The translations under genes were made by a program, and so were the position numbers. 64,000 nt of DNA from Myxococcota bacterium (GTDB lineage Bacteria; Myxococcota; UBA4151), in the NCBI GenBank assembly GCA_036338695.1, contig JAYZBQ010000058.1, positions 1 through 64,000 on the forward strand, read 5' to 3'. Positions 18,941 to 29,800 of this stretch are shown in pieces (the first letter of the stretch is position 1; every line of letters starts with the position of its first letter). A model generated the notes under the pieces. The model saw only the letters and a list, made by a program, of their open reading frames with translations, ran no database searches and had not been told where the DNA came from.

Positions 18941-20380
18941 CTAACGCACAAACACGAGCCCCCACGCCGTGGTGCGCTTGACGCCGTTGTCCGGCGCAAA
19001 GCCGATCGCCTCGTTACCCACCGACCGACCGGGGCCGCGCCCCAGATCGTTGGAGCCCGCCCCAAAGCCGATCCGTGAATCGGGCGTGACGCAGTCGTTC
19101 TCCTGGTTGGCGACGATCCCGATTCGGACGCGCATGAGCGGGTTGTAGACGTTGAAGCCCTCGCGGTTGCATCGCGCTTGCAAGGAGCCCCCTTTGACCA
19201 GGCGCTTCCAAGCCTCTCGACCGACCTTGGTCGGCTGGTACTTATTGCCCTTGAAGAGGTGGTAGAGCGACCGTGCGCTGTGGTCGATTTTGAGGTTGCG
19301 CCACAGCTTGCCTCCGTCCCAAGTGACCAGGTTGATGGCGTCAAACGGGATGCGGTAAAACCCTTTGGTTTTCGCTTCATAGGGCGTCTTTTTATCGAGC
19401 TTTGCATTGAGCGTCTGGCGGTTTGTCCAGAGCGGTGAGTCATAGGCAAAAGTCGGCTTACGGCCGTCGATCGAGAGCACGAGCGTCCAGCCGCCCCCAT
19501 CATAAGTCATATCGCAATAGGACGGATACGGCGCCTTACTGCGCTTGAGGAAGTACATGCCATCCTTTGCCTTCGGCCGGGCGCGCTTGATCGCTTTGCA
19601 GTGCTTTGCAGGGCGTTCAAAACTTCCCAGCGCCTTCTTGGCACGCTTCGCCGCCTCACGCTCCGCTTGCTCCTGAGCTAGCGCCTCCGCTTCGCGCTTT
19701 GCCGCCGCCCGGCGCGCAGCTTCGACCGCTTTGGCTTGCTCACTCGCTTGCGCCGCTCGGCGTTGCGCCTCGGCGATCCGGCGCTGATCGGCCGCACGCT
19801 GTGCCGCCTCAAGCTGCCGCCGCGCGTCGTCCGCCTCGCGCTTGGCTTGCTCCGCTGCTCGCTGGGCGGCTTGTACCGCTTTGGTGGCGTCCTGACGCAG
19901 CACCTGGAGCTCGAGCGCCGTGGGTGCTCGGCCGCCATCCTTGAGCAGCTCGCGGACCTTGGCGGGGAGCGAGTCAGCGAAGGCTTCGACCGTCTCGCTC
20001 TGGTCCGCCACGGTTGAGAGCGCGCGAACCTTCTCGATATCGACCAGCTTGAGCGTCAGAATGTATCGCTTGCCGAGCTGGTCGAGCCCGCCGGTGACCA
20101 GGTATTTGGCGCCCAAGGCGCCGCCAAGCTCGGCGATGCAGCTCGCCTCATCGCAGCCGCCTGACAACTGGCGCTTGATCTCCTCATCGATGGCGCCGAG
20201 GTCCTCGGGGGTGACCAGCGTGTATTGGCTCGACTGTCCCGCATAGATACGCACCAAGCGGGTCAGCGTTTGCGCGTCCTTGGAGGCGCCCTGGCTCGAC
20301 CGCAGAGGCGCCACGATCAAGGTGGGAGGGAGGGGCATCGAGCTCACCATCAGCGCGGCCGTAAGGGTCAGACTTGACAT
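18941..20380 (-). CDS. Exported protein: GCDxxSCxAELGGALG domain + coiled coil + fibrinogen-like domain
   Basis: GCDEASCIAELGGALG; A/Q/R/E-rich helix; PAKHCKAIK...DGMY...YCDMTYDGGGWTLV. Confidence 0.8.
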   Translation of the reverse strand: MSSLTLTAALMVSSMPLPPTLIVAPLRSSQGASKDAQTLTRLVRIYAGQSSQYTLVTPEDLGAIDEEIKRQLSGGCDEASCIAELGGALGAKYLVTGGLDQLGKRYILTLKLVDIEKVRALSTVADQSETVEAFADSLPAKVRELLKDGGRAPTALELQVLRQDATKAVQAAQRAAEQAKREADDARRQLEAAQRAADQRRIAEAQRRAAQASEQAKAVEAARRAAAKREAEALAQEQAEREAAKRAKKALGSFERPAKHCKAIKRARPKAKDGMYFLKRSKAPYPSYCDMTYDGGGWTLVLSIDGRKPTFAYDSPLWTNRQTLNAKLDKKTPYEAKTKGFYRIPFDAINLVTWDGGKLWRNLKIDHSARSLYHLFKGNKYQPTKVGREAWKRLVKGGSLQARCNREGFNVYNPLMRVRIGIVANQENDCVTPDSRIGFGAGSNDLGRGPGRSVGNEAIGFAPDNGVKRTTAWGLVFVR

Positions 20381-20538
20381 GGTGTGTTTGGCTCCAACTT
20401 GAGGGCGACAGGACCAGCAAACGGTGACTGCGTCACCAAGTCAAGGACGCAGGATGCCGGCGCCTATTCACAGAAGGCGTCAGGCGTGATCCAAACAACA
20501 CGGCGGGATCAATGCGCCGTGCGATGGAGGCTCTCGGT

Positions 20539-21081
20539 ATGGCACAACCTGCGACCATCAGACGCTTTGAGATCGACGTCACGAATGTCGACGGCGGTGT
20601 GTATGAGTCCGTCTCGCTTCGGGTGGCGCAACACCCTTCCGAGAGTGAAGCGTACTGCGTGGTGCGCGTCATCGCCTATTGTCTGCATCTGGGCGACGGC
20701 GTTCGGATGTCCAAATCCGGGCTGTGCGATGCTGACGAGCCGCCGCTGAGCTCCGAGTCGCTAACGGGCGAGCCGCGTCTGTGGGTTGATATCGGATCGC
20801 CCTCGGCTGATCGCCTTCATAAGGCCTCGAAGCGCTACGCTCGCGTGGTGGTGTACACCCACAAGCGCCCCGAGCTGCTGATCGACAAACTCAACAAACA
20901 GCGCATTCACCGCGCTGACGAGCTCGAGCTCTACGCACTGGATAACGCCGCCATTGAACAACTAGCCGCTCGGCTGAGCCGGTCCAACAACTGGTCGTTC
21001 ATACGCCAAGATGACGAGCTCTTCATCACGGCAGGCGAGTCCCCCGTGAGCTTTCCGCTCCGTGCCTTGCCTGCGCCGTGA
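20539..21081 (+). CDS. yaeQ: YaeQ family protein
   Basis: AQHPSES, GLCDADEP, LWVDIGSPSADRLHKAS; GGAGG before ATG 20539. Confidence 0.9.
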   Translation: MAQPATIRRFEIDVTNVDGGVYESVSLRVAQHPSESEAYCVVRVIAYCLHLGDGVRMSKSGLCDADEPPLSSESLTGEPRLWVDIGSPSADRLHKASKRYARVVVYTHKRPELLIDKLNKQRIHRADELELYALDNAAIEQLAARLSRSNNWSFIRQDDELFITAGESPVSFPLRALPAP

Positions 21082-21163
21082 GCCTGAGGTGTCCTACACC
21101 CTTATAGCTAAAGAACAACGGCCTCGACTAGCGCATCCCGGCCGGGTTCGCTAAACCCCGCTC

Positions 21164-23473
21164 ATGAGATACCTAAACCTTCTTGTTCTGACGGTGCTGG
21201 CGGCCTGTGGTGCGCCGAGCCTCGAAGCCCACCAACTCAAAGTCACCATCGAAGACGAACGCCTGACGATCCGTGGCGTCGGCGAGCGCCTTTTGCTCGA
21301 TCTTCCGATCCGGGAGCTCGCGGCACGCAGCGGCTCGGCGAGTCACCAGATGAAGTTTGGCTCGTTCTTAGTCGAGGACCTGCCGCAACAAGCCTGGCAA
21401 GTCAGCGAGTCGATCGACGTCTCAAGCGATGACGAGACCTTGACCGCAAAGCTTGACGGTCTGGGGACGCTGACCGCTGAGATCGTCGCCGACGGACACG
21501 CTAAGGTGACCTGGGCTGCCGAGCAAGGCAACCGCGCTCGGATGGTGATCGACTGTGCAGCCGACGAGCGCTTCATGGGCTTTGGTGCGCAGACCCATGA
21601 CGTCGATCATCGCGGTCAGCGGATCCCTTTGTGGGTGTCGGAGCAGGGGATCGGGAAGAATGACACGGATGAGGTGCCGCCGGTCTGGTTTTTGGTGGGG
21701 CGCCGCCACTCAACCCATATCCCGGTCGCAGCGACCGTGACCTCGCGCGGGATTGCTTGGGCAGTCGAGACCGACGCCTACACCGAGGTAGATCTCTGCC
21801 TTGAGCGCGCCGACGCCACGGCGATTGAGCTGCACGAAGCGACCGTCCGACTGCACGTCTTTGATGGCCCGTCCCCGATGGAGGCGCTCAAGCGCTTCAC
21901 GGGCTGGGTTGGGCGGCCCAAGCTGCCACCGGCGTGGGTTTTTGCGCCATGGAACGACGCCGTTTTCGGTGAAGAGAACGTGCAGCGCTTCGCTGAATTC
22001 TTACGCGATGACTCGATCCCGACCTCAGCGATCTGGAGCGAGGACTGGAAGGGCGGGAACTGGCACGGCGACGCCTACCGGCTCGAGGAAGACTGGCGCC
22101 TTGACCGGGAGATCTACCCCGAGTTCGAGACCCTCACTCAGACGCTTCGCACCATGGGGATCCACCTGATGGTCTACTTCAACACCTTCGTCTTTGAGGC
22201 AGCCGAGATCTTTAACGAGGCGCATGATCAAGGCTTCTTGGTCAAAGACAAGAGCGGGGAGTTCGTCCGTTTCCAGGGGCCTAACGCCAATTTTACGCAC
22301 GCTGGGTTGATCGATCTGACCAATGAGGCTGCCGTAGAGTGGGTCGCCAATGAGCTCCGCCAGGCGCTCGACTACGGTGCTCGGGGATGGATGGCAGATT
22401 ACGCGGAGTGGATGCCTGTGGATGACGTGGTCCTGGCGAGCGGGGAGGACCCCGCGCTGGTTCACAACCGCTACCCGATCATGTGGCAGCAGCTCAATGA
22501 GCGCGTGATCGAGGAGGCAGGGCTCGCAGACGAAGCGATCGCCTTTTATCGCTCAGGCTGGATGGGCTCGCAGCCCTACGCTCGGGTGATCTGGGCCGGT
22601 GATCAAAACACGGACTTTGACCCCAACGACGGCTTCCCGACCATCTTGCCCTTGGGTATCGGGCTGAGCGCAACCGGCTTCCCGTTCTACGGTCACGACA
22701 TCGCCGGCTACCAGAGCAACACCACGGACCCGTCGACTAAAGAGCTGTTCCTGCGCTGGACCAGCCTCGGCGCCTTCTCTCCGGTGATGAGGACCCACCA
22801 CGGAACACACGCCTCCGAGAATTGGAACCTTGAGCGCGATGAGGAGACGACGGCGCACTGGAAGCGCTACGCCCGGCTCCACATGCAGCTGTTTCCCTAT
22901 CTCTGGGGTCTAGCGCAGCGCGCCGTGAACGAAGGTGAACCGATCTGGCGAGGCCTCGGTCTCGAGCACCCGGCCGAGCTTGAGCTCTGGTCCATCATGG
23001 ATCAGGTCTACTTGGGTCCGGCGCTCATGGTTGCGCCCGTTCAGACTCAGGGCGCGACGGCGCGGCAGGTGGTGATCCCGAGCGGACGCTTCGCACCCTT
23101 CTTCGGCGGCGAGGCGGTGACTGGGCCAAAGACGGTTGAGGTGCAAGCGCCCGTGACCGAGATCCCGGTTTTCGTGCGCGCCGGCGGGTTGGTGCCCATG
23201 CTCGCTGAGCCGGTCGATACCTTAATGCCGGATGTTGAGGGGCTGCGCGACCTCGGCGACACAAACGGCGATCGTTTGCTTCATGTCGGGCTCGGGGCCG
23301 CCGGGCGCTTTTGTGAGGCGGATGGCGCCTGCTACGAGCTGACGGGAGAGGGCACCGCACAGCCTGCCAACGAGTTGGTTCTTCAAGGAAATACAGCGCA
23401 TCAAGGTGACGGCTGGCGGCTGGTGACCACCGGTCAGCCAAGCGGTCGCCAGACCCGAGTCATAGCCCACTAA
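21164..23473 (+). CDS. GH31 glycoside hydrolase lipoprotein, related to the YihQ clade
   Basis: Lipobox LAAC; LWVSEQGIG; nucleophile motif GWMADYAE; acid/base motif WAGDQN; GHDIAGY; PVMRTH. Confidence 0.88.
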   Translation: MRYLNLLVLTVLAACGAPSLEAHQLKVTIEDERLTIRGVGERLLLDLPIRELAARSGSASHQMKFGSFLVEDLPQQAWQVSESIDVSSDDETLTAKLDGLGTLTAEIVADGHAKVTWAAEQGNRARMVIDCAADERFMGFGAQTHDVDHRGQRIPLWVSEQGIGKNDTDEVPPVWFLVGRRHSTHIPVAATVTSRGIAWAVETDAYTEVDLCLERADATAIELHEATVRLHVFDGPSPMEALKRFTGWVGRPKLPPAWVFAPWNDAVFGEENVQRFAEFLRDDSIPTSAIWSEDWKGGNWHGDAYRLEEDWRLDREIYPEFETLTQTLRTMGIHLMVYFNTFVFEAAEIFNEAHDQGFLVKDKSGEFVRFQGPNANFTHAGLIDLTNEAAVEWVANELRQALDYGARGWMADYAEWMPVDDVVLASGEDPALVHNRYPIMWQQLNERVIEEAGLADEAIAFYRSGWMGSQPYARVIWAGDQNTDFDPNDGFPTILPLGIGLSATGFPFYGHDIAGYQSNTTDPSTKELFLRWTSLGAFSPVMRTHHGTHASENWNLERDEETTAHWKRYARLHMQLFPYLWGLAQRAVNEGEPIWRGLGLEHPAELELWSIMDQVYLGPALMVAPVQTQGATARQVVIPSGRFAPFFGGEAVTGPKTVEVQAPVTEIPVFVRAGGLVPMLAEPVDTLMPDVEGLRDLGDTNGDRLLHVGLGAAGRFCEADGACYELTGEGTAQPANELVLQGNTAHQGDGWRLVTTGQPSGRQTRVIAH

Positions 23474-23508
23474 TGGCGGCTTAGGGCAGTTGACCGAGCC
23501 GCGGCGTC

Positions 23509-23537
23509 TTGCGCCGGGTGCGAAGTCCTTCTAAAGT
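23509..23537 (+). promoter_or_regulatory. Putative sigma70-type promoter for the poly-Cys leader
   Basis: TTGCGC (23509-14), a 17-nt spacer, TAAAGT (23532-37), then 6 nt to ATG 23544. Confidence 0.6.
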
Positions 23538-23543
23538 GGAACC

Positions 23544-23630
23544 ATGATGAGCCTCAACGTGATCACCACCGACGTCTCTGGGAACGGCACCTGTTGTTGT
23601 TGCTGTTGTTGTACGTCGACCCCGTGGTGA
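23544..23630 (+). CDS. Poly-cysteine leader peptide MMSLNVITTDVSGNGTCCCCCCCTSTPW (candidate attenuator uORF)
   Basis: ATG ATG AGC...ACC TGT TGT TGT TGC TGT TGT TGT ACG TCG ACC CCG TGG TGA, in frame and intergenic. Confidence 0.75.
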   Translation: MMSLNVITTDVSGNGTCCCCCCCTSTPW

Positions 23631-23741
23631 ACTGAGCGCCTTCCTTCCTACTCGCCAGTCTTCAGTCACCACGGAGGTCCTCTTCGGGTGCTGGAATGAT
23701 CTGTCTCATGCATCCGTCTCCTCCCTACTTATCGGATGCAT
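23563..23741 (+). promoter_or_regulatory. Structured leader with mutually exclusive hairpins
   Basis: Segment A (23563-75) pairs with B (23613-30). B (23618-35) alternatively pairs with C (23662-79). A perfect 9-bp stem 23708-16/23733-41 lies just before ATG 23744. Confidence 0.65.
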
Positions 23742-23743
23742 CC

Positions 23744-24703
23744 ATGACCCACTCACTACCCACTGTTCACATCCTCTATGAAAACGCTGCCTGGCTGCCG
23801 CCCTTGACCGAGGCGCTCAAAGCTGAGGGCTTTCCCATCCGGCTGTGGCCAGTTGACGGCGGTTTGATCGATCCGTCCGAGGAGCCACCGGAGGGGTTGT
23901 GGATCAATCGCATCAGCCCATCGTCGCACACGCGTGGGCACCACCACAGCGTCGGCCTGACGCGCGAGTGGCTCTCCTGGCTTCGAGTCCACCGGCGCCG
24001 GGTGATCAACGGCCTCGAGGCGTTCGAACTCGAGATGAGCAAGCTTCGGCAGGACATGGCGCTGCGTCGCCACGGCATCTTGACCCCTAAGACCGTCCTC
24101 GCGGTGGGGCGTGACCAGATCCTCGACGCTGCGGCGCGCTTTGAAGGTCCCTTCATCACCAAGCACAACCAAGGCGGTAAGGGCTTGGGGATCCGGCAGT
24201 TCACCGACGTCGCATCGCTTCGAGCCTATCTCGACTCGGATGCCTTTGATGAGGGCCCCGACGGCAAGCTGATCCTTCAAGAGTTTATCGAAGCCGCCGA
24301 GCCGGTGATCACGCGGGTCGAGGTCGTGGGCGGTGAGATGATCTTCGCCATGAACAGCTCGACCGAAGAGGGTTTTGAGCTCTGCCCTAGCGACGCGTGC
24401 CAGGCGACCCCGGCGTCGGTGTGCCCAGGTGAGGCGCCGAGCAGCAAGTTCAGCCCTGCCACGCTGAGCGCCGACGACCCGCTGGTGCAGAAGTATCTTC
24501 GATTCTGTGCCCTCGAGGGCGTTGAGGTCGCGGGTATCGAGTTCATCACCGACCGACACGGTCGCCGGTACACTTACGACGTCAACGGGACCACCAACTA
24601 CAGCAGCGGCGTCGAGCGCGCCGTCGGCGTCGACGGCATGCGCGAGCTCGCCAAGTACATTCGGGGTATGGCGGGCTGCGCCAGCCTGGACCGGGTCGCC
24701 TAG
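23744..24703 (+). CDS. RimK-like ATP-grasp ligase
   Basis: HILYENAAWLPPL, NRISPSSHTRGH, EMSKLRQ, FITKHNQGGKGLG, ILQEFI, GIEF, YDVNGTTNY. Alternative in-frame starts at 23696 and 23708. Confidence 0.85.
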   Translation: MTHSLPTVHILYENAAWLPPLTEALKAEGFPIRLWPVDGGLIDPSEEPPEGLWINRISPSSHTRGHHHSVGLTREWLSWLRVHRRRVINGLEAFELEMSKLRQDMALRRHGILTPKTVLAVGRDQILDAAARFEGPFITKHNQGGKGLGIRQFTDVASLRAYLDSDAFDEGPDGKLILQEFIEAAEPVITRVEVVGGEMIFAMNSSTEEGFELCPSDACQATPASVCPGEAPSSKFSPATLSADDPLVQKYLRFCALEGVEVAGIEFITDRHGRRYTYDVNGTTNYSSGVERAVGVDGMRELAKYIRGMAGCASLDRVA

Positions 24704-25122
24704 CCCACGTTGTAGGAGCTGTGGTGCAGCGTAATGCGCACCTGCCCATCCACCTTCCGGTAGGCGAAGCTGTAGTCGGCGAAGACTTCCGTGCCATCAG
24801 GCTGGGTGAAGGTGTAGTGCCCCATGTCGTGCGCTGTCAGGCCGTCGCGAGCGATCACGGGTCCGCGGGCGCTGTCAAAATCGACGGCGACGAAGCCGTT
24901 GTGCAAGAAGCCTTTATCGCCCGGATAGTTGACGTCTCCGCCCACAAAGTACGACCGAGCGCCGGCTGCGTCGGTACGAATCGATGGCGACATCGTGGGC
25001 TTGAAGACCAGCTCGGAGAAGTCATAGAGCGCAAGCAAGGCTTCAGGGTCTGCTGCGACGACGCCGGCGCCCCATTGGCTTTGCGCTTCGATGACTTCGT
25101 CGCGTGTGAGTGTATCGTTCAT
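24700..25122 (-). CDS. NTF2/CaMKII-association-fold protein, candidate iota carbonic anhydrase
   Basis: FKPT, SYFVGG, DKGF, MGHYTF and C-terminal ITLHHSS. Confidence 0.7.
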   Translation of the reverse strand: MNDTLTRDEVIEAQSQWGAGVVAADPEALLALYDFSELVFKPTMSPSIRTDAAGARSYFVGGDVNYPGDKGFLHNGFVAVDFDSARGPVIARDGLTAHDMGHYTFTQPDGTEVFADYSFAYRKVDGQVRITLHHSSYNVG

Positions 25123-25132
25123 GATGCAGTCC

Positions 25133-26050
25133 TTACTCGGGGCAGGTTTGATCGCTGATCCAGGCGCCGACCTGTTGTGCGTAGCGGTCGTAGCCTTCGG
25201 TCACGGCGATCCCGCCACTGATGCCATGACCGGCGCCGGAGGTGCGCCAGAAGCACTTCGGTGCGTTCATCGCATCGTAGAGCGCCTCGCTGTGCTCGAT
25301 CCGGATGAAGGTATCATCCGAGCTGTGCATCAGGAGAATCGGGGCGGTGACCTCGGGCAGTTTCTCTAGGTTGTCGTAGCTCCCGCTCAGGACGAAGGAG
25401 GCAGGAAACGAAGTGGCGCTCGAGTCGGCGAGGAAGAGCGAGGCGCTCGGGTAGGGCGCCTCAAGGATAACGCCCTTGACCGCATGCTTGCGGGCAAGGT
25501 GCACCGTGGGCAGCGCACCCAGGCTCATGCCGTAGAGGATCACACCTGATTCTTGCAGGCCACGCTGCTGCAGCTCCGTCAACAACAGCGCGTAAGCGTC
25601 ATCGGCGTTGGCGAAGAAGGCGGTCTCCGAAGGCGCTTGATCGCTGCTCGACTGACCGTAGCCTGGGTACTCATAGGTGAACAGGTTGGGGCCGGCGCCG
25701 TACAACGCCTCCATGGTGTGCAGGTAGTGCTCGATGCCGCCACGGTTGCCGTGCGAGACCACCACCGTGACCTCAGCGAGCGGCGAGCCCTCAGGAGCCG
25801 CCACAAAGTAGGCGTCGTTGGTGACCCCGCCGCTCTCAAACGAGAGCGCACTCACCCGGTCAGCAGGCATCCCTCGATCGGCGAAGGGGTAGGACTCGCC
25901 GCACGGTGTGCACAAGCGGTCCATCTCTTCGGTCTCGTCCTCGCAGGTCTCGGTACCGATCACGCTGCAGTGTCTGGGGTTGTGTTGAAAGCCGTCCAGA
26001 TTGGCGATGCAGGCGCTCAGCGTGAGCGCCAGGGGTAGAATGGAACGCAT
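25133..26050 (-). CDS. Alpha/beta hydrolase lipoprotein
   Basis: Lipobox LSAC; HGN, YPGYGQS, GMSLG, HSSDD, GAGH. Confidence 0.88.
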   Translation of the reverse strand: MRSILPLALTLSACIANLDGFQHNPRHCSVIGTETCEDETEEMDRLCTPCGESYPFADRGMPADRVSALSFESGGVTNDAYFVAAPEGSPLAEVTVVVSHGNRGGIEHYLHTMEALYGAGPNLFTYEYPGYGQSSSDQAPSETAFFANADDAYALLLTELQQRGLQESGVILYGMSLGALPTVHLARKHAVKGVILEAPYPSASLFLADSSATSFPASFVLSGSYDNLEKLPEVTAPILLMHSSDDTFIRIEHSEALYDAMNAPKCFWRTSGAGHGISGGIAVTEGYDRYAQQVGAWISDQTCPE

Positions 26051-26709
26051 TACTTACCTCCAAACTGTCGTGAGATCCCGAGACCAAGTCCTTGAGCGCC
26101 TAAGTCGGCGATACCCGCCCAGGCGAGCGCCGCCTTGCTGTTGTCGGCGTTGGCACCGAACCAGCGGTACTCGACGTAGTAGGTCCACTTGTTGCGACGC
26201 AGCTTGGCGCCAAGCGCCGGCGTGAGCAAAAGCCCGGGCATGCCCAAGTCGAGGTGCTCCATCAGGCTCGCATAGTAGGTGGCTCGCCCGTGCGTCCACG
26301 ACCCGGTCAAGGTCAGCTCATTGTTTAGCCAAAGGCCGCGCGAGTCCGCAGGTTTTCGATCGTCGAGGTGATTCGAGAAGACGTAGAGGCGGTTCGTCAC
26401 GAGCAATCGAGGGCGCCGGCCCGCTTGCTCGCTGAGCTGATAGCTTGCCCCGACATGACCACCGAGCGCACCGAAGACGGGCGGAAGCAGGTGCGTCCCA
26501 ACGTTCCAGTCCCAGCGCTCGCCACCGCCCTGGCGGTATTCGGCGGTCATGCTTGGAAGCGCAATGGTGGGGCCGCCTCCAGGCAACGCGATCATCGGCC
26601 CCCCGAAGGTCGCGCTGACCTCCTGCTGACCGGGCTTGAGAGTTTCGGTCACCGGGACCGTGATGCACCCAGCGCTGGCGAGCAGCGCCATGATATATGT
26701 TCTGCGCAT
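26050..26709 (-). CDS. Hypothetical lipoprotein, possible beta-barrel
   Basis: SAGC lipobox; amphipathic beta strands; ends GLGISRQFGGK; TAATG coupling to the hydrolase gene. Confidence 0.65.
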   Translation of the reverse strand: MRRTYIMALLASAGCITVPVTETLKPGQQEVSATFGGPMIALPGGGPTIALPSMTAEYRQGGGERWDWNVGTHLLPPVFGALGGHVGASYQLSEQAGRRPRLLVTNRLYVFSNHLDDRKPADSRGLWLNNELTLTGSWTHGRATYYASLMEHLDLGMPGLLLTPALGAKLRRNKWTYYVEYRWFGANADNSKAALAWAGIADLGAQGLGLGISRQFGGK

Positions 26710-26865
26710 GGCGACCTCCGCTCGAGCCTTTAGCGACCTGGCGATGCGAGGTCGAGTAAGAAGCGATCCTGCGCGCGGTCAACGCAACAACGCAAACGCA
26801 CGCCAAGGTCTAGTCAATCGACCGAGCGCTGCCTTATGGTTGAGCGTCGCTAGGGTGAGACGTCA

Positions 26866-29800
26866 ATGGAAGCTATTCGGTTAGGTGCGTTTGAGCTGCG
26901 GCGCCGGGTCGGATCAGGCGGTATGGGTGAAGTCTGGCTGGCAGAGCACGCCCTGAACGGCAAGCCCGTAGCGATCAAGACCATTCACCTGCGCCAGGAC
27001 GATGACCAGCAGATGGGGCACCGCTTCGTCGCTGAGGTGCAGGCGGTGGCGCGTCTGTCGCACCCGAACATCGTCGGGATCCATGACTTCGGCGTGATCT
27101 CAGAGCGTGCCGCCGAGCACTCACTCGGCGTGCTGCAAGCGCATGCTCCGTGGTTCGCCATGGAGTTTTGCGCCGACGGGGACTTGATCTCGGAGCGACC
27201 GACCGACTGGCGAGGGATGCACCATGTGCTCTCGTCGATTCTGGAGGCGTTGGCGCTTACCCACGCCAACGGTGTGCTTCATCGCGACCTCAAGCCAGGG
27301 AACGTACTTATCGCTCGGCAGCCAGACGGAACCCTCTGCTACAAGCTCGCTGATTTTGGGCTCGCCTGGAGCCAAGACCGCTCGGCCGACCTAAACCGAA
27401 GCAGCCAGAGCGTGGGGACGCCGAACTATATGGCGCCCGAACAGGCGACCGGTCAGCTGCACGCCTTTGGACCGGCGACGGATCTCTATGCGCTGGGGTG
27501 CCTCGCCTGGAATTTGGCGTGCGGTAGCGCGCCCTTTACCTCCTTTGGCCAAGACGCCACGGCGCTCATGAATGCACAGGTGCACGCGCACCCGCCGCAG
27601 TTCCGACCCCGCTTTGCCTTACCTCGAGCGGTAGAGCACTGGATCCGCCGGCTGCTACGCAAAGACCCAAGCGACCGCTATGCCGTGGCTGCTGAGGCGC
27701 TCGCCGAGCTGCCCGGAGCAGGCGCTCACTGTGACTTGAACGCGCTCCCCGTCGAGGGTTCTGCCGAGAACGCTGCGCCGACCGTTGAGGTTCAGAGCGT
27801 CACGCCTCATCACGAGCCGCCGGCGCCCCCGGCGCCGCGCACAGCGAGCCGCCTAAGCACCTTTCGCAGCGCGCCGGTGACCTGGCCAAGTTGGCAGCAA
27901 AATGAGCAAACGCTGCGACCTGAGCCCGGTGTTGGGATGGGACTCGTGGGCCTTCGATCGCTGCCGGTGGTCGGGTTGCAGGCACAGCGACAGCAGCTCT
28001 GGGATGCGCTCAAAGAGACGATCGCCGGTGGCCAGCAGCGCTTGATGTTCATCGAGGGCGCAGCGGGCAGCGGCAAATCCCGCCTGGCGATGTGGCTCAC
28101 TCGAGCAGCCCATCAGCAAGGGCTCGCTCAATACGCCATGGCGAGCTTCCGTGGGGAGCTGGAGCAAGGCGCTAGCCTCGCCGCTGCGCTGGCGGCGCAT
28201 ATTGGCCTGGATCGCGGGATGACCGCTCAGGAGGCGCTGCTCGTGGTGGCCTCGCATCTGAGCCGGCATCGCTGTGACAGCGTGGCTGCGCGTAAGGCGT
28301 ACCTCTCGGCTTTTGACAGCGTCTTGTCCCAACTCGAGATCGAAGAGTCGAGCTCCGATGAGCTGCGGCGAGAGACCCTCGGCGAGCTCGTCAAGCAGCT
28401 TGCGCGTGCCAAACCGCTGATCCTTGTGCTCGACGATCTCCTGCACGACCCAAGCGCCCTCGAGTTTGCGGAGTATGTGCTTGAGCAAGAGCGCTGTCCT
28501 TGCCTGATCGTGGCGACCTATCGCCCCGATGACCTCGCTCGAAACGAACAGAACCAAGGACTCCACGGTGTCTTGATCGAGCGGGAGGCGTGCAGCCGCG
28601 TGACCACGCAGGCGCTCAACGCCCAGGAGTGCCAGGATTTTACCCGCTCGCTGCTGGGGTTATCCACCGACCTGACACAGCGAATCGCCAGCGGCTCGAA
28701 GGGGTCGCCCGAGACGGTGCGGCAGCTGTTGATGCAGCTGGTCGAAGAGGACTGCCTCGAGGTGAGCGAGGGAGGGCTCGACCTCAAAGCGGGGCATCAA
28801 CTGCGCTTCCTCGACAGCCTCACTGCCGTGATCGCGGAGCGGACACGGCGCGCGCTCGACGCGCTGTCACCGGATGAGCGACGGTTTCTCATCTTGGGGA
28901 CGCTGCTCGGCGAGCGCGTCGAGATCTCCCTGCAGCATCAGCTCTGCCGTCGGCTCGGTCAGCGCCACAGCCCTGGCTTGGTCGCAGACTTGGCGCGTGG
29001 CAGCATGCTGGCACTCCGGCGCGACAGCTGGGGATTTGTCGACGCTACCCAGCGCGAGATGTTGCTGGCTTATCCCGAGGCACAGCTCGACCGGGCTGCC
29101 TATATCGCCGCCGCTGAGGTCCTCGAAGGCAGCTCCCGGCATATGAGCCTCGTCTATCGCTGGGCTGCCGCGCACAACCGTTTGGCCGCCGGCGAAGCGC
29201 TCGGCAAAGAGCGCATGCTGGAGCTGATGACCGGGACCATTGCGAGCGGACGTTATCAAGCGGCGATGCGGATGGGGCAGGACTATCTCTCCCTTGTCGA
29301 AGCGCCGGAGCACCTTGAAGAGGCGACGCCGTGTTTCGAGGTGCGGATGGCTTACAATCTGTGCCTGTACCGACTCCACCGGATCGAGGAGGGGCTCGCG
29401 GATATCGATGCGCTCAGCGCGCGCTGGCCCAACCTGCCGACGGCGTTGCGCCATCACGTCCTGACTCGGCGTGGGCTCTATCTCCACCCCAAGTTCCGAC
29501 AGGTGATCTACGAGGAGATGTTGGAGGAGGGGGTCGCGCCCGAACTCGAGGTAGAGATCCGACCAGCGCTCGCCCGCCGCTGTGAGAGCAAAGGGCGCGT
29601 CAGCGAGGCGCTGGACCACTACGATCAAGCCTTGGCGGCCGCCGCAAAGCTGGGCGAGGACGCCGCTTTTCCCATTCTAGCGAAGCGATCGGCTTTGGCG
29701 ATCGCAGCCGATCGCTCCCGGGAAGCCGAGCAGGACCTTCTCGTCTGTCAGCGGCAGCGAGACGCGGTCGAGGAGCGCGCTCGCTGGAGCTTGGAGCGGC

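Follow-up and report, generated by a model that had tools for sequence, protein, structure and literature searches.

A cysteine-codon leader with a predicted translational relay ahead of a RimK/LysX-like ATP-grasp ligase gene in a Myxococcota bacterium

The leader reading frame and the ligase gene

The window, i.e. the whole 64,000-nt stretch of DNA that was analysed, carries a gene for an uncharacterised ATP-grasp ligase of the RimK/LysX type on the forward strand (23744-24703; 319 aa). It is followed by a convergent gene on the reverse strand (24700-25122), which overlaps the ligase stop by 4 nt and resembles metal-independent carbonic anhydrase genes (NF047901, 68 bits at a cut-off of 350). 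Upstream of the ligase gene a short open reading frame (uORF, 23544-23630, forward strand) of 28 codons ends with the stop codon TGA (23628-30). This uORF contains seven consecutive Cys codons (23592-23612; six TGT and one TGC), a cluster of putative sensor codons 5 codons ahead of the stop.

The ligase matches the Pfam RimK family (E 1.6e-8) and reaches 64.1 bits with TIGR00768 (cut-off 143.4), staying below all curated cut-offs. Its predicted fold (pLDDT 91) resembles ArgX and LysX with TM values of 0.70-0.72 and RimK with a TM value of about 0.7. Fold and Pfam match are shared with the alpha-L-glutamate-type ligases RimK, LysX and ArgX, but an identity of 15-20%, scores far below the curated cut-offs and two cysteine residues (C214 and C219), invariant in 99 ligase sequences, set the protein apart from them. 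Matches in the ESM Atlas were unnamed RimK-like clusters only.

Occurrence of the leader before homologous genes

Homologous genes were drawn from relatives, from GTDB genomes (best 80 of 398) and from metagenomes (best 80 of 336). The 166 loci comprised 140 distinct ones, 133 of which had enough upstream DNA. Loci with informative titles belong mostly to Myxococcota or Deltaproteobacteria, and some are of the Gemmatimonadota type; the order of the source organism holds only 6 genomes. A Cys-rich short frame occupies the position of the uORF in 83 of the 133 loci (window included), and the leader is absent from 50 loci. In the controls such a frame was present on the reverse strand of 4 loci, and nine other residues gave no more than 11 each. 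TGT is used for 311 and TGC for 174 of the Cys codons in the 83 leaders, compared to 28 and 266 in the downstream genes. Two leaders (L086 and L147) were removed by eye as unrelated, which left 81 leaders.

In the window the uORF is preceded by a −10-like hexamer (TAAAGT, 23532-23537, forward strand) 6 nt upstream of its ATG (23544) and by a −35-like hexamer (TTGCGC, 23509-23514, forward strand) 17 nt upstream of the −10 box. A strict promoter and terminator scan of the window missed this promoter and returned no terminator at the leader; the promoter was recognised by comparison across the 81 leaders. TTG is present at the −35 position in 58 of them, and the arrangement of a TTG hexamer, 16-18 nt, a TA hexamer and 4-10 nt precedes the uORF start in 58/81 leaders, compared to 6 of 1704 in-gene start-like codons. 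An SD-like word stands ahead of the uORF in only 2 of the 58 promoter-pattern leaders and ahead of the ligase start in 67 of the 81 leaders. It is likely that a sigma-70-like promoter drives the uORF, that transcription starts at or adjoining ATG 23544 and that the uORF is leaderless, because its start sits 6 nt behind the promoter. Within the source genome a loose rule returned 82 Cys-rich short frames, judged by eye to be noise; among 652 promoter-start patterns five were Cys-rich, and of these the uORF described here alone has a Cys run. A search of the whole window against Rfam at the gathering score gave no matches (no riboswitch, T-box or leader family).

A cysteine-synthase-like gene (TIGR01138, 358 bits at a cut-off of 394) follows the ligase gene in five leader-bearing loci. 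Of the 50 leader-lacking loci 40 were scanned, and two of these have a SAM riboswitch at the head of the operon, followed by a panB-like gene and the ligase gene; these riboswitches are located on Marinimicrobia-titled contigs (L094:1801-1912 and L106:1787-1898). As far as can be read from sequence, the cysteine-synthase-like neighbour and the SAM riboswitch both point to sulfur limitation. A general shared operon context around the ligase gene was not found among the 49 neighbours scanned, which are a subset and form 14 small clusters of mostly unrelated functions.

A second leader architecture was observed in L056, L068, L069, L145, L151 and L159, with longer Cys runs that end at the stop and a branched stem downstream that lacks a U-tract. 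In five of these six loci a cysteine-synthase-like gene follows the ligase gene. A second RimK-like ATP-grasp gene follows the ligase gene in the leader-lacking loci L007, L008, L082, L083, L099, L100, L105 and L166.

Could the short peptide itself be the product, as a graspetide-like precursor for the ATP-grasp enzyme or as a metal-binding Cys-rich peptide? We regard this as very improbable. The fold of the enzyme also matches the graspetide ligases PsnB, PruB and AMdnB (TM about 0.6), but ArgX, LysX and RimK are the better matches. The N-terminal parts of the peptides are no more alike than shuffled ones (median score 10 in both sets, 2628 pairs; a score of at least 30 in 16 compared to 2 pairs). 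Asp or Glu occurs from the first Cys onward in only 16 of 73 peptides, and the combination of a graspetide leader motif with an acidic core was not found in them. A peptide product would moreover leave unexplained the codon bias, the replacement of the leader by a SAM riboswitch, and the helix covariation and terminators described below.

Helices of the leader and their covariation

The leader in this genome consists of a chain of overlapping helices (A:B, B:C, C:D, D:E and E:F), all segments being given for the forward strand. Segment A (23563-23575) and segment B (23613-23635), which spans the uORF stop, are predicted to form a 1:2-like helix in ribosome-free RNA (23563-69 with 23624-30 and 23570-75 with 23613-18). 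Alternatively, B pairs with segment C (23661-23679) in an antiterminator-like 2:3 helix of 18 pairs with one bulge per side (23618-35 with 23662-79; −27.5 kcal/mol). C is also the partner of segment D (23682-23695), the 3′ arm of the C:D hairpin (23661-76/23682-95; −16.3 kcal/mol). Part of D (23685-91) can in turn pair with segment E (23708-23716) at 23710-16 (−11.2 kcal/mol). The other partner of E is segment F (23733-23741), which carries the weak SD-like word of the ligase gene (23734-38); this word is buried in E:F, a 9-bp stem (23708-16/23733-41; −12.0 kcal/mol) that ends 2 nt ahead of ATG 23744. B:C and E:F are the competitors of C:D and D:E.

The pairings A:B and B:C, the 9-bp stem, a CCTCC word at 23720-24, a mini-ORF at 23688-99 and an in-frame ATG at 23696, all listed in the initial annotation, are present in the sequence at these coordinates. 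The list of helices was incomplete, with C:D and D:E missed, and the 9-bp stem is not the separate element it had been taken for, since its left arm E alternatively pairs with D. The word GGAGG (23673-77) takes part in B:C, where its A is bulged, as well as in C:D; it is therefore no switched ribosome-binding site, and this candidate was rejected. Coupling of the mini-ORF to ATG 23696 was discarded as well (0 of 6 relatives' rows, two rows with in-frame stops), as was a pairing of CCTCC with GGAGG (CCTCC loop in 0 of 6 relatives' rows, probability 0.0 in the folds). No sequence conservation was seen for the pyrimidine loop, which is A/T-rich in several relatives.

The whole leader folds modestly better than shuffled sequences (z −1.86; 6/200). 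Dinucleotide shuffles of the partner equalled the real pairing in 0 (B:C), 1 (C:D), 0 (D:E), 8 (E:F) and 10 (A:B) of 500 trials, and random window segments did so in 0, 3, 71, 15 and 30 of 1000 trials, respectively; the segment borders were set after the folds had been seen, and these fractions are not true probabilities. In unmasked folds of this leader the Cys codons form local pairs, and E is the partner of the SD-like word; direct pairing of the Cys tract with the SD region was not found in them.

RNAalifold returned no consensus pair for a 48-row leader alignment, because MAFFT had placed the arms out of register. For the covariation analysis the own segments of each leader were scored against the segments of other leaders. 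With fixed windows the cognate B:C pairing scored above expectation in 65 and A:B in 50 of the 81 leaders (37-43 for three control pairs); among 46 representatives with less than 75% gene identity the corresponding numbers were 38 and 29 (controls 20-25). In 48 leaders that were picked by eye as alignable and aligned by hand, the cognate pairing exceeded the non-cognate mean in 47 (C:D), 41 (B:C), 37 (D:E), 32 (A:B) and 23 (E:F) cases, eight control pairs scoring 20-27. The p-values of these comparisons overstate the significance, because the relatives are not independent. Covariation across homologous leaders, as envisaged for the two pairings of the initial annotation, is thus seen for B:C and is weak for A:B, and E:F shows no family-wide covariation (23/48). 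The central switch, previously taken to lie between A:B and B:C, appears to be that between B:C and C:D, A:B being a genus-level feature that is weak family-wide. All three species of the genus are able to form all five helices, and in the sister genus A:B is not formed and E:F is weak. B:C retains 17 of 18 pairs with two two-sided changes in the nearest species, and E:F retains 7 of 9 pairs with five two-sided changes in L031.

In L042, L047, L131, L176 and similar loci a recurring G-rich word precedes the SD within the last 20 nt ahead of the ligase gene. Its predicted partner is the region of the start codon, with which it would form a start-sequestering hairpin distinct from E:F.

C:D reaches −10 kcal/mol or lower in 45 of the 46 aligned leaders with a usable start, and at least 6 U follow it in 19 of the 46 (another rule gives 30/76). 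As C:D is followed by a U-tract in many leaders, it is homologous to an intrinsic terminator and B:C to its antiterminator. The 8 nt after C:D hold 3 U in this genome and 4-5 U in the other four species of the family, three of which have 5 U. No intrinsic terminator was found by the scanner at C:D here, in line with the lack of a U-tract terminator recorded in the initial annotation; judged against the aligned leaders, the U-tract after C:D is decayed in this genome.

Six RNA libraries were examined, which come from 12 listed RNA runs, all with small shares of this genome. The leader is covered in two of them and pieces of the ligase gene in five; the rest of 19000-29000 is uncovered in the four libraries examined over that span. 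One contig spans 23589-23788, across C:D into the ligase gene, and a second one is confined to 23574-23728. The libraries were chosen for holding the leader/gene stretch and the contigs are assembled from low depth; they therefore demonstrate presence in RNA only, neither level nor RNA ends.

These data bear on the reading that C:D retains weak intrinsic terminator activity, perhaps aided by NusA or NusG, and that the leader is an ordinary transcription attenuator with D:E and E:F being secondary. The position of C:D matches that of the U-tract terminators in 19 of the 46 leaders, three members of the family still have 5 U within 8 nt, and the shorter contig would be in agreement with termination. 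Nevertheless, only 3 U follow C:D here, the scanner returned no terminator, and both leader contigs pass C:D by 30-90 nt, contig ends being unable to show RNA ends. According to this, we consider a weak terminator rather improbable.

Ribosome position, start-site access and relation to known attenuators

Ribosome-masked folding predicts what had been proposed initially, namely that the position of the ribosome on the uORF selects the fold. With a mask extending up to 11 nt past the A-site, B:C had a probability of 0.90 with the A-site on Cys codons 1-5, a mixture was obtained at Cys 6, and C:D reached 0.85 for positions between the last Cys codon and the stop. Masking the ribosome footprint alone gave a less distinct stalled state, with 0.47 for B:C and 0.42 for C:D at Cys 2-3, since the model then allows A to pair around the ribosome. 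The switch point for stalls on the last Cys codons shifts with the assumed ribosome footprint; from codon 23616 onward C:D reached 0.99 under all three footprints. When the hairpin was chosen automatically, a switch exceeding 0.5 was seen in only 22 of 83 leaders, compared to 6 with shuffled B. The modelling thus predicts mutually exclusive 2:3 and 3:4 helices that are chosen by ribosome position. In folds computed for the stages of transcription with a stalled ribosome B:C formed, followed by D:E (0.97-0.99) before F emerges, and with the ribosome at the stop C:D and E:F reached 0.96. In this genome equilibrium folding of the stalled state still favours E:F (0.74-0.86).

In the proposed mechanism a shortage of charged tRNA-Cys would make the ribosome stall within the Cys run, covering A and leaving B free. 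B:C would form and release D, which would capture E, and F with its SD-like word could then be opened at lower cost (ON). With ample cysteine the ribosome would proceed to the stop and cover B, C:D would form, and E would pair with F and bury the start site (OFF); Rho may then end the untranslated mRNA. The direction of the switch, considered impossible to settle by eye in the initial annotation, is predicted via C:D and D:E to be ON with the ribosome stalled on the Cys codons. The leader very probably contains the core of a cysteine-sensing leader-peptide attenuator, and this core is probably, if less surely, combined with a translational relay to the ligase start site.

For the relay, the cost of opening the start region was calculated with D locked in C:D and with D free. 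It amounts to 14.5 and 10.7 kcal/mol in this genome, and to 9.4/3.0, 13.3/5.6, 6.1/2.2 and 6.4/4.0 kcal/mol in the other four species of the family. In the same order, shuffled D was as good as real D in 8, 0, 1, 0 and 4 of 30 trials; real D is only modestly better than shuffled D in this genome (8/30 and 3/20 shuffles equal). A relay gain of at least 2 kcal/mol is predicted for 5/5 family members and for 11 of 41 other leaders. The gain is unrelated to the loss of the U-tract (9/27 versus 7/19), and the idea of a trade-off is unsupported by these numbers. An automatic definition of D, which made visible mis-assignments, gave no support for the relay (11/75). Without the C:D lock the difference between ON and OFF is 2.5 kcal/mol here and in L002 and is reversed in L003-L005; across 76 leaders equilibrium folding gave no start-site switching (13 up, 16 down; p 0.85). 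The relay is therefore predicted in all five family species on condition that C:D remains folded, with this genome having the weakest one. Since E:F wins at equilibrium in this genome, and since the difference without the lock is reversed in three family members and disappears across the 76 leaders, the relay needs a kinetically persistent C:D or early ribosome loading. Translational control, one of the two outputs suggested initially, is the leading reading for this lineage on the basis of these modelled opening energies.

The same calculations would fit a leader that is a decaying vestige in this genome, with the sensor intact, the U-tract lost, E:F dominant and the gene barely regulated: the equilibrium folds contain E:F in either state, and even with the switch ON 10.7 kcal/mol is needed to open the start site. 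Nevertheless, the seven intact Cys codons, the intact promoter pattern and the conservation of B:C in the nearest species (17/18 pairs, two two-sided changes) indicate continued selection, and RNA contigs cover both leader and gene. We consider a vestige quite improbable.

The same cysteine sensor could also act through Rho-dependent termination, B:C being lost with the ribosome at the stop, C-rich single-stranded RNA becoming exposed, and C:D and E:F serving as pause sites. A rho gene is present in the genome above the family cut-off, and C exceeds G both in the B-C loop (12 C, 4 G) and in the 108 nt downstream of D (42 C, 16 G). For mycobacterial cys leaders, which are predicted to lack terminators, an output of the Rho type has been proposed (PMC1262725, accessible part). 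This reading is unlikely here: it leaves the covariation of D:E unexplained, the pyrimidine loop varies between relatives up to A/T-rich sequences, and the tested mycobacterial poly-Cys leader is described as acting on translation and not on termination (10.1101/834739, accessible part). As Rho is present and C-rich RNA follows D, polarity may add to the translational control that we favour.

In attenuators such as trpL and hisL the sensor codons form a run close to the stop of a short uORF, the RNA can adopt 1:2, 2:3 and 3:4 helices, and the 3:4 helix acts as terminator together with a U-tract. The leader described here shares the short uORF, the position of the sensor run and the three helices, and in many relatives also the U-tract after 3:4. 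It differs in that cysteine would be sensed, the uORF is likely leaderless, the target is a ligase gene and not a biosynthetic operon, the U-tract is decayed here, and the additional helices D:E and E:F extend to the start site. In its predicted working it resembles a classical leader-peptide attenuator; as no terminator was detected in this genome, it is taken as a variant and not a member of this class. In translation attenuators of the ermC type stalling on a uORF is triggered by antibiotics. In the vmlR leader of Bacillus subtilis uORF stalling is described to control an anti-antiterminator, an antiterminator and a terminator in addition to a translation layer (PMC9226507, accessible part). 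Both have in common with the present leader, in its case by prediction, that uORF stalling steers competing hairpins and that translation is also affected, and both differ from it in responding to an antibiotic instead of an amino acid.

For leaderless poly-Cys sORFs of mycobacteria (Ms5788A) the accessible part of the report shows translational attenuation, with the Cys tract pairing directly with the SD region (Canestrari et al., 10.1101/834739). The poly-Cys sORF and the link of the target to cysteine are alike, and the likely leaderless start and the predicted effect of stalling on downstream SD access would be so, too. There, a single stable duplex of Cys tract and SD is described, whereas here control would run through a chain of competing hairpins that derive from a terminator/antiterminator pair; phylum and target gene also differ. 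The uORFC-8-2 motif before cysS of Rhodobacterales is likewise a predicted Cys-codon attenuator with an intrinsic terminator. It has two Cys codons, mostly UGC, ahead of the gene for cysteinyl-tRNA synthetase, and the accessible part of the paper describes no start-site relay (PMC8632094). An ATP-grasp ligase controlled by an S-box is described in staphylococci (PMC9486568, accessible part), and the accessible part of PMC13236596 holds nothing further on this leader-ligase family. The literature searched contained no description of such a leader before this ligase or in Myxococcota, and supplementary motif tables could list one. The experimentally tested cysteine leader attenuators in it were mycobacterial and translational only, the terminator type being solely predicted.

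We tentatively propose a single cysteine-sensing leader family with both outputs. In many lineages C:D would act as a U-tract terminator; in the Myxococcota family studied here it would have been repurposed as the middle link of a five-helix domino (A:B, B:C, C:D, D:E, E:F) that gates translation. The leader would mark the Cys-bearing ATP-grasp ligase as an enzyme of sulfur starvation, and in marine group II archaea, too, the gene may be preceded by a poly-Cys leader. The attenuation logic itself is textbook and the organism is uncultured. Natural variants with and without a U-tract before the same gene make a shift from transcriptional to translational output testable, and for a widespread orphan ATP-grasp family the leader is a functional clue, suggesting that the enzyme is likely needed under cysteine scarcity.

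On a contig titled as Poseidoniales archaeon (L087:2760-2990) a short frame ending in a Cys run was observed ahead of the same ligase, and leaders of this type are also present in L173 and L175; these three are possibly archaeal poly-Cys leaders. In L087 a TATA-like word lies 23 nt upstream of the ATG of the frame, the frame is followed by no strong hairpin (−3.2 kcal/mol), and the neighbouring genes resemble NfeD and flotillin genes by eye.
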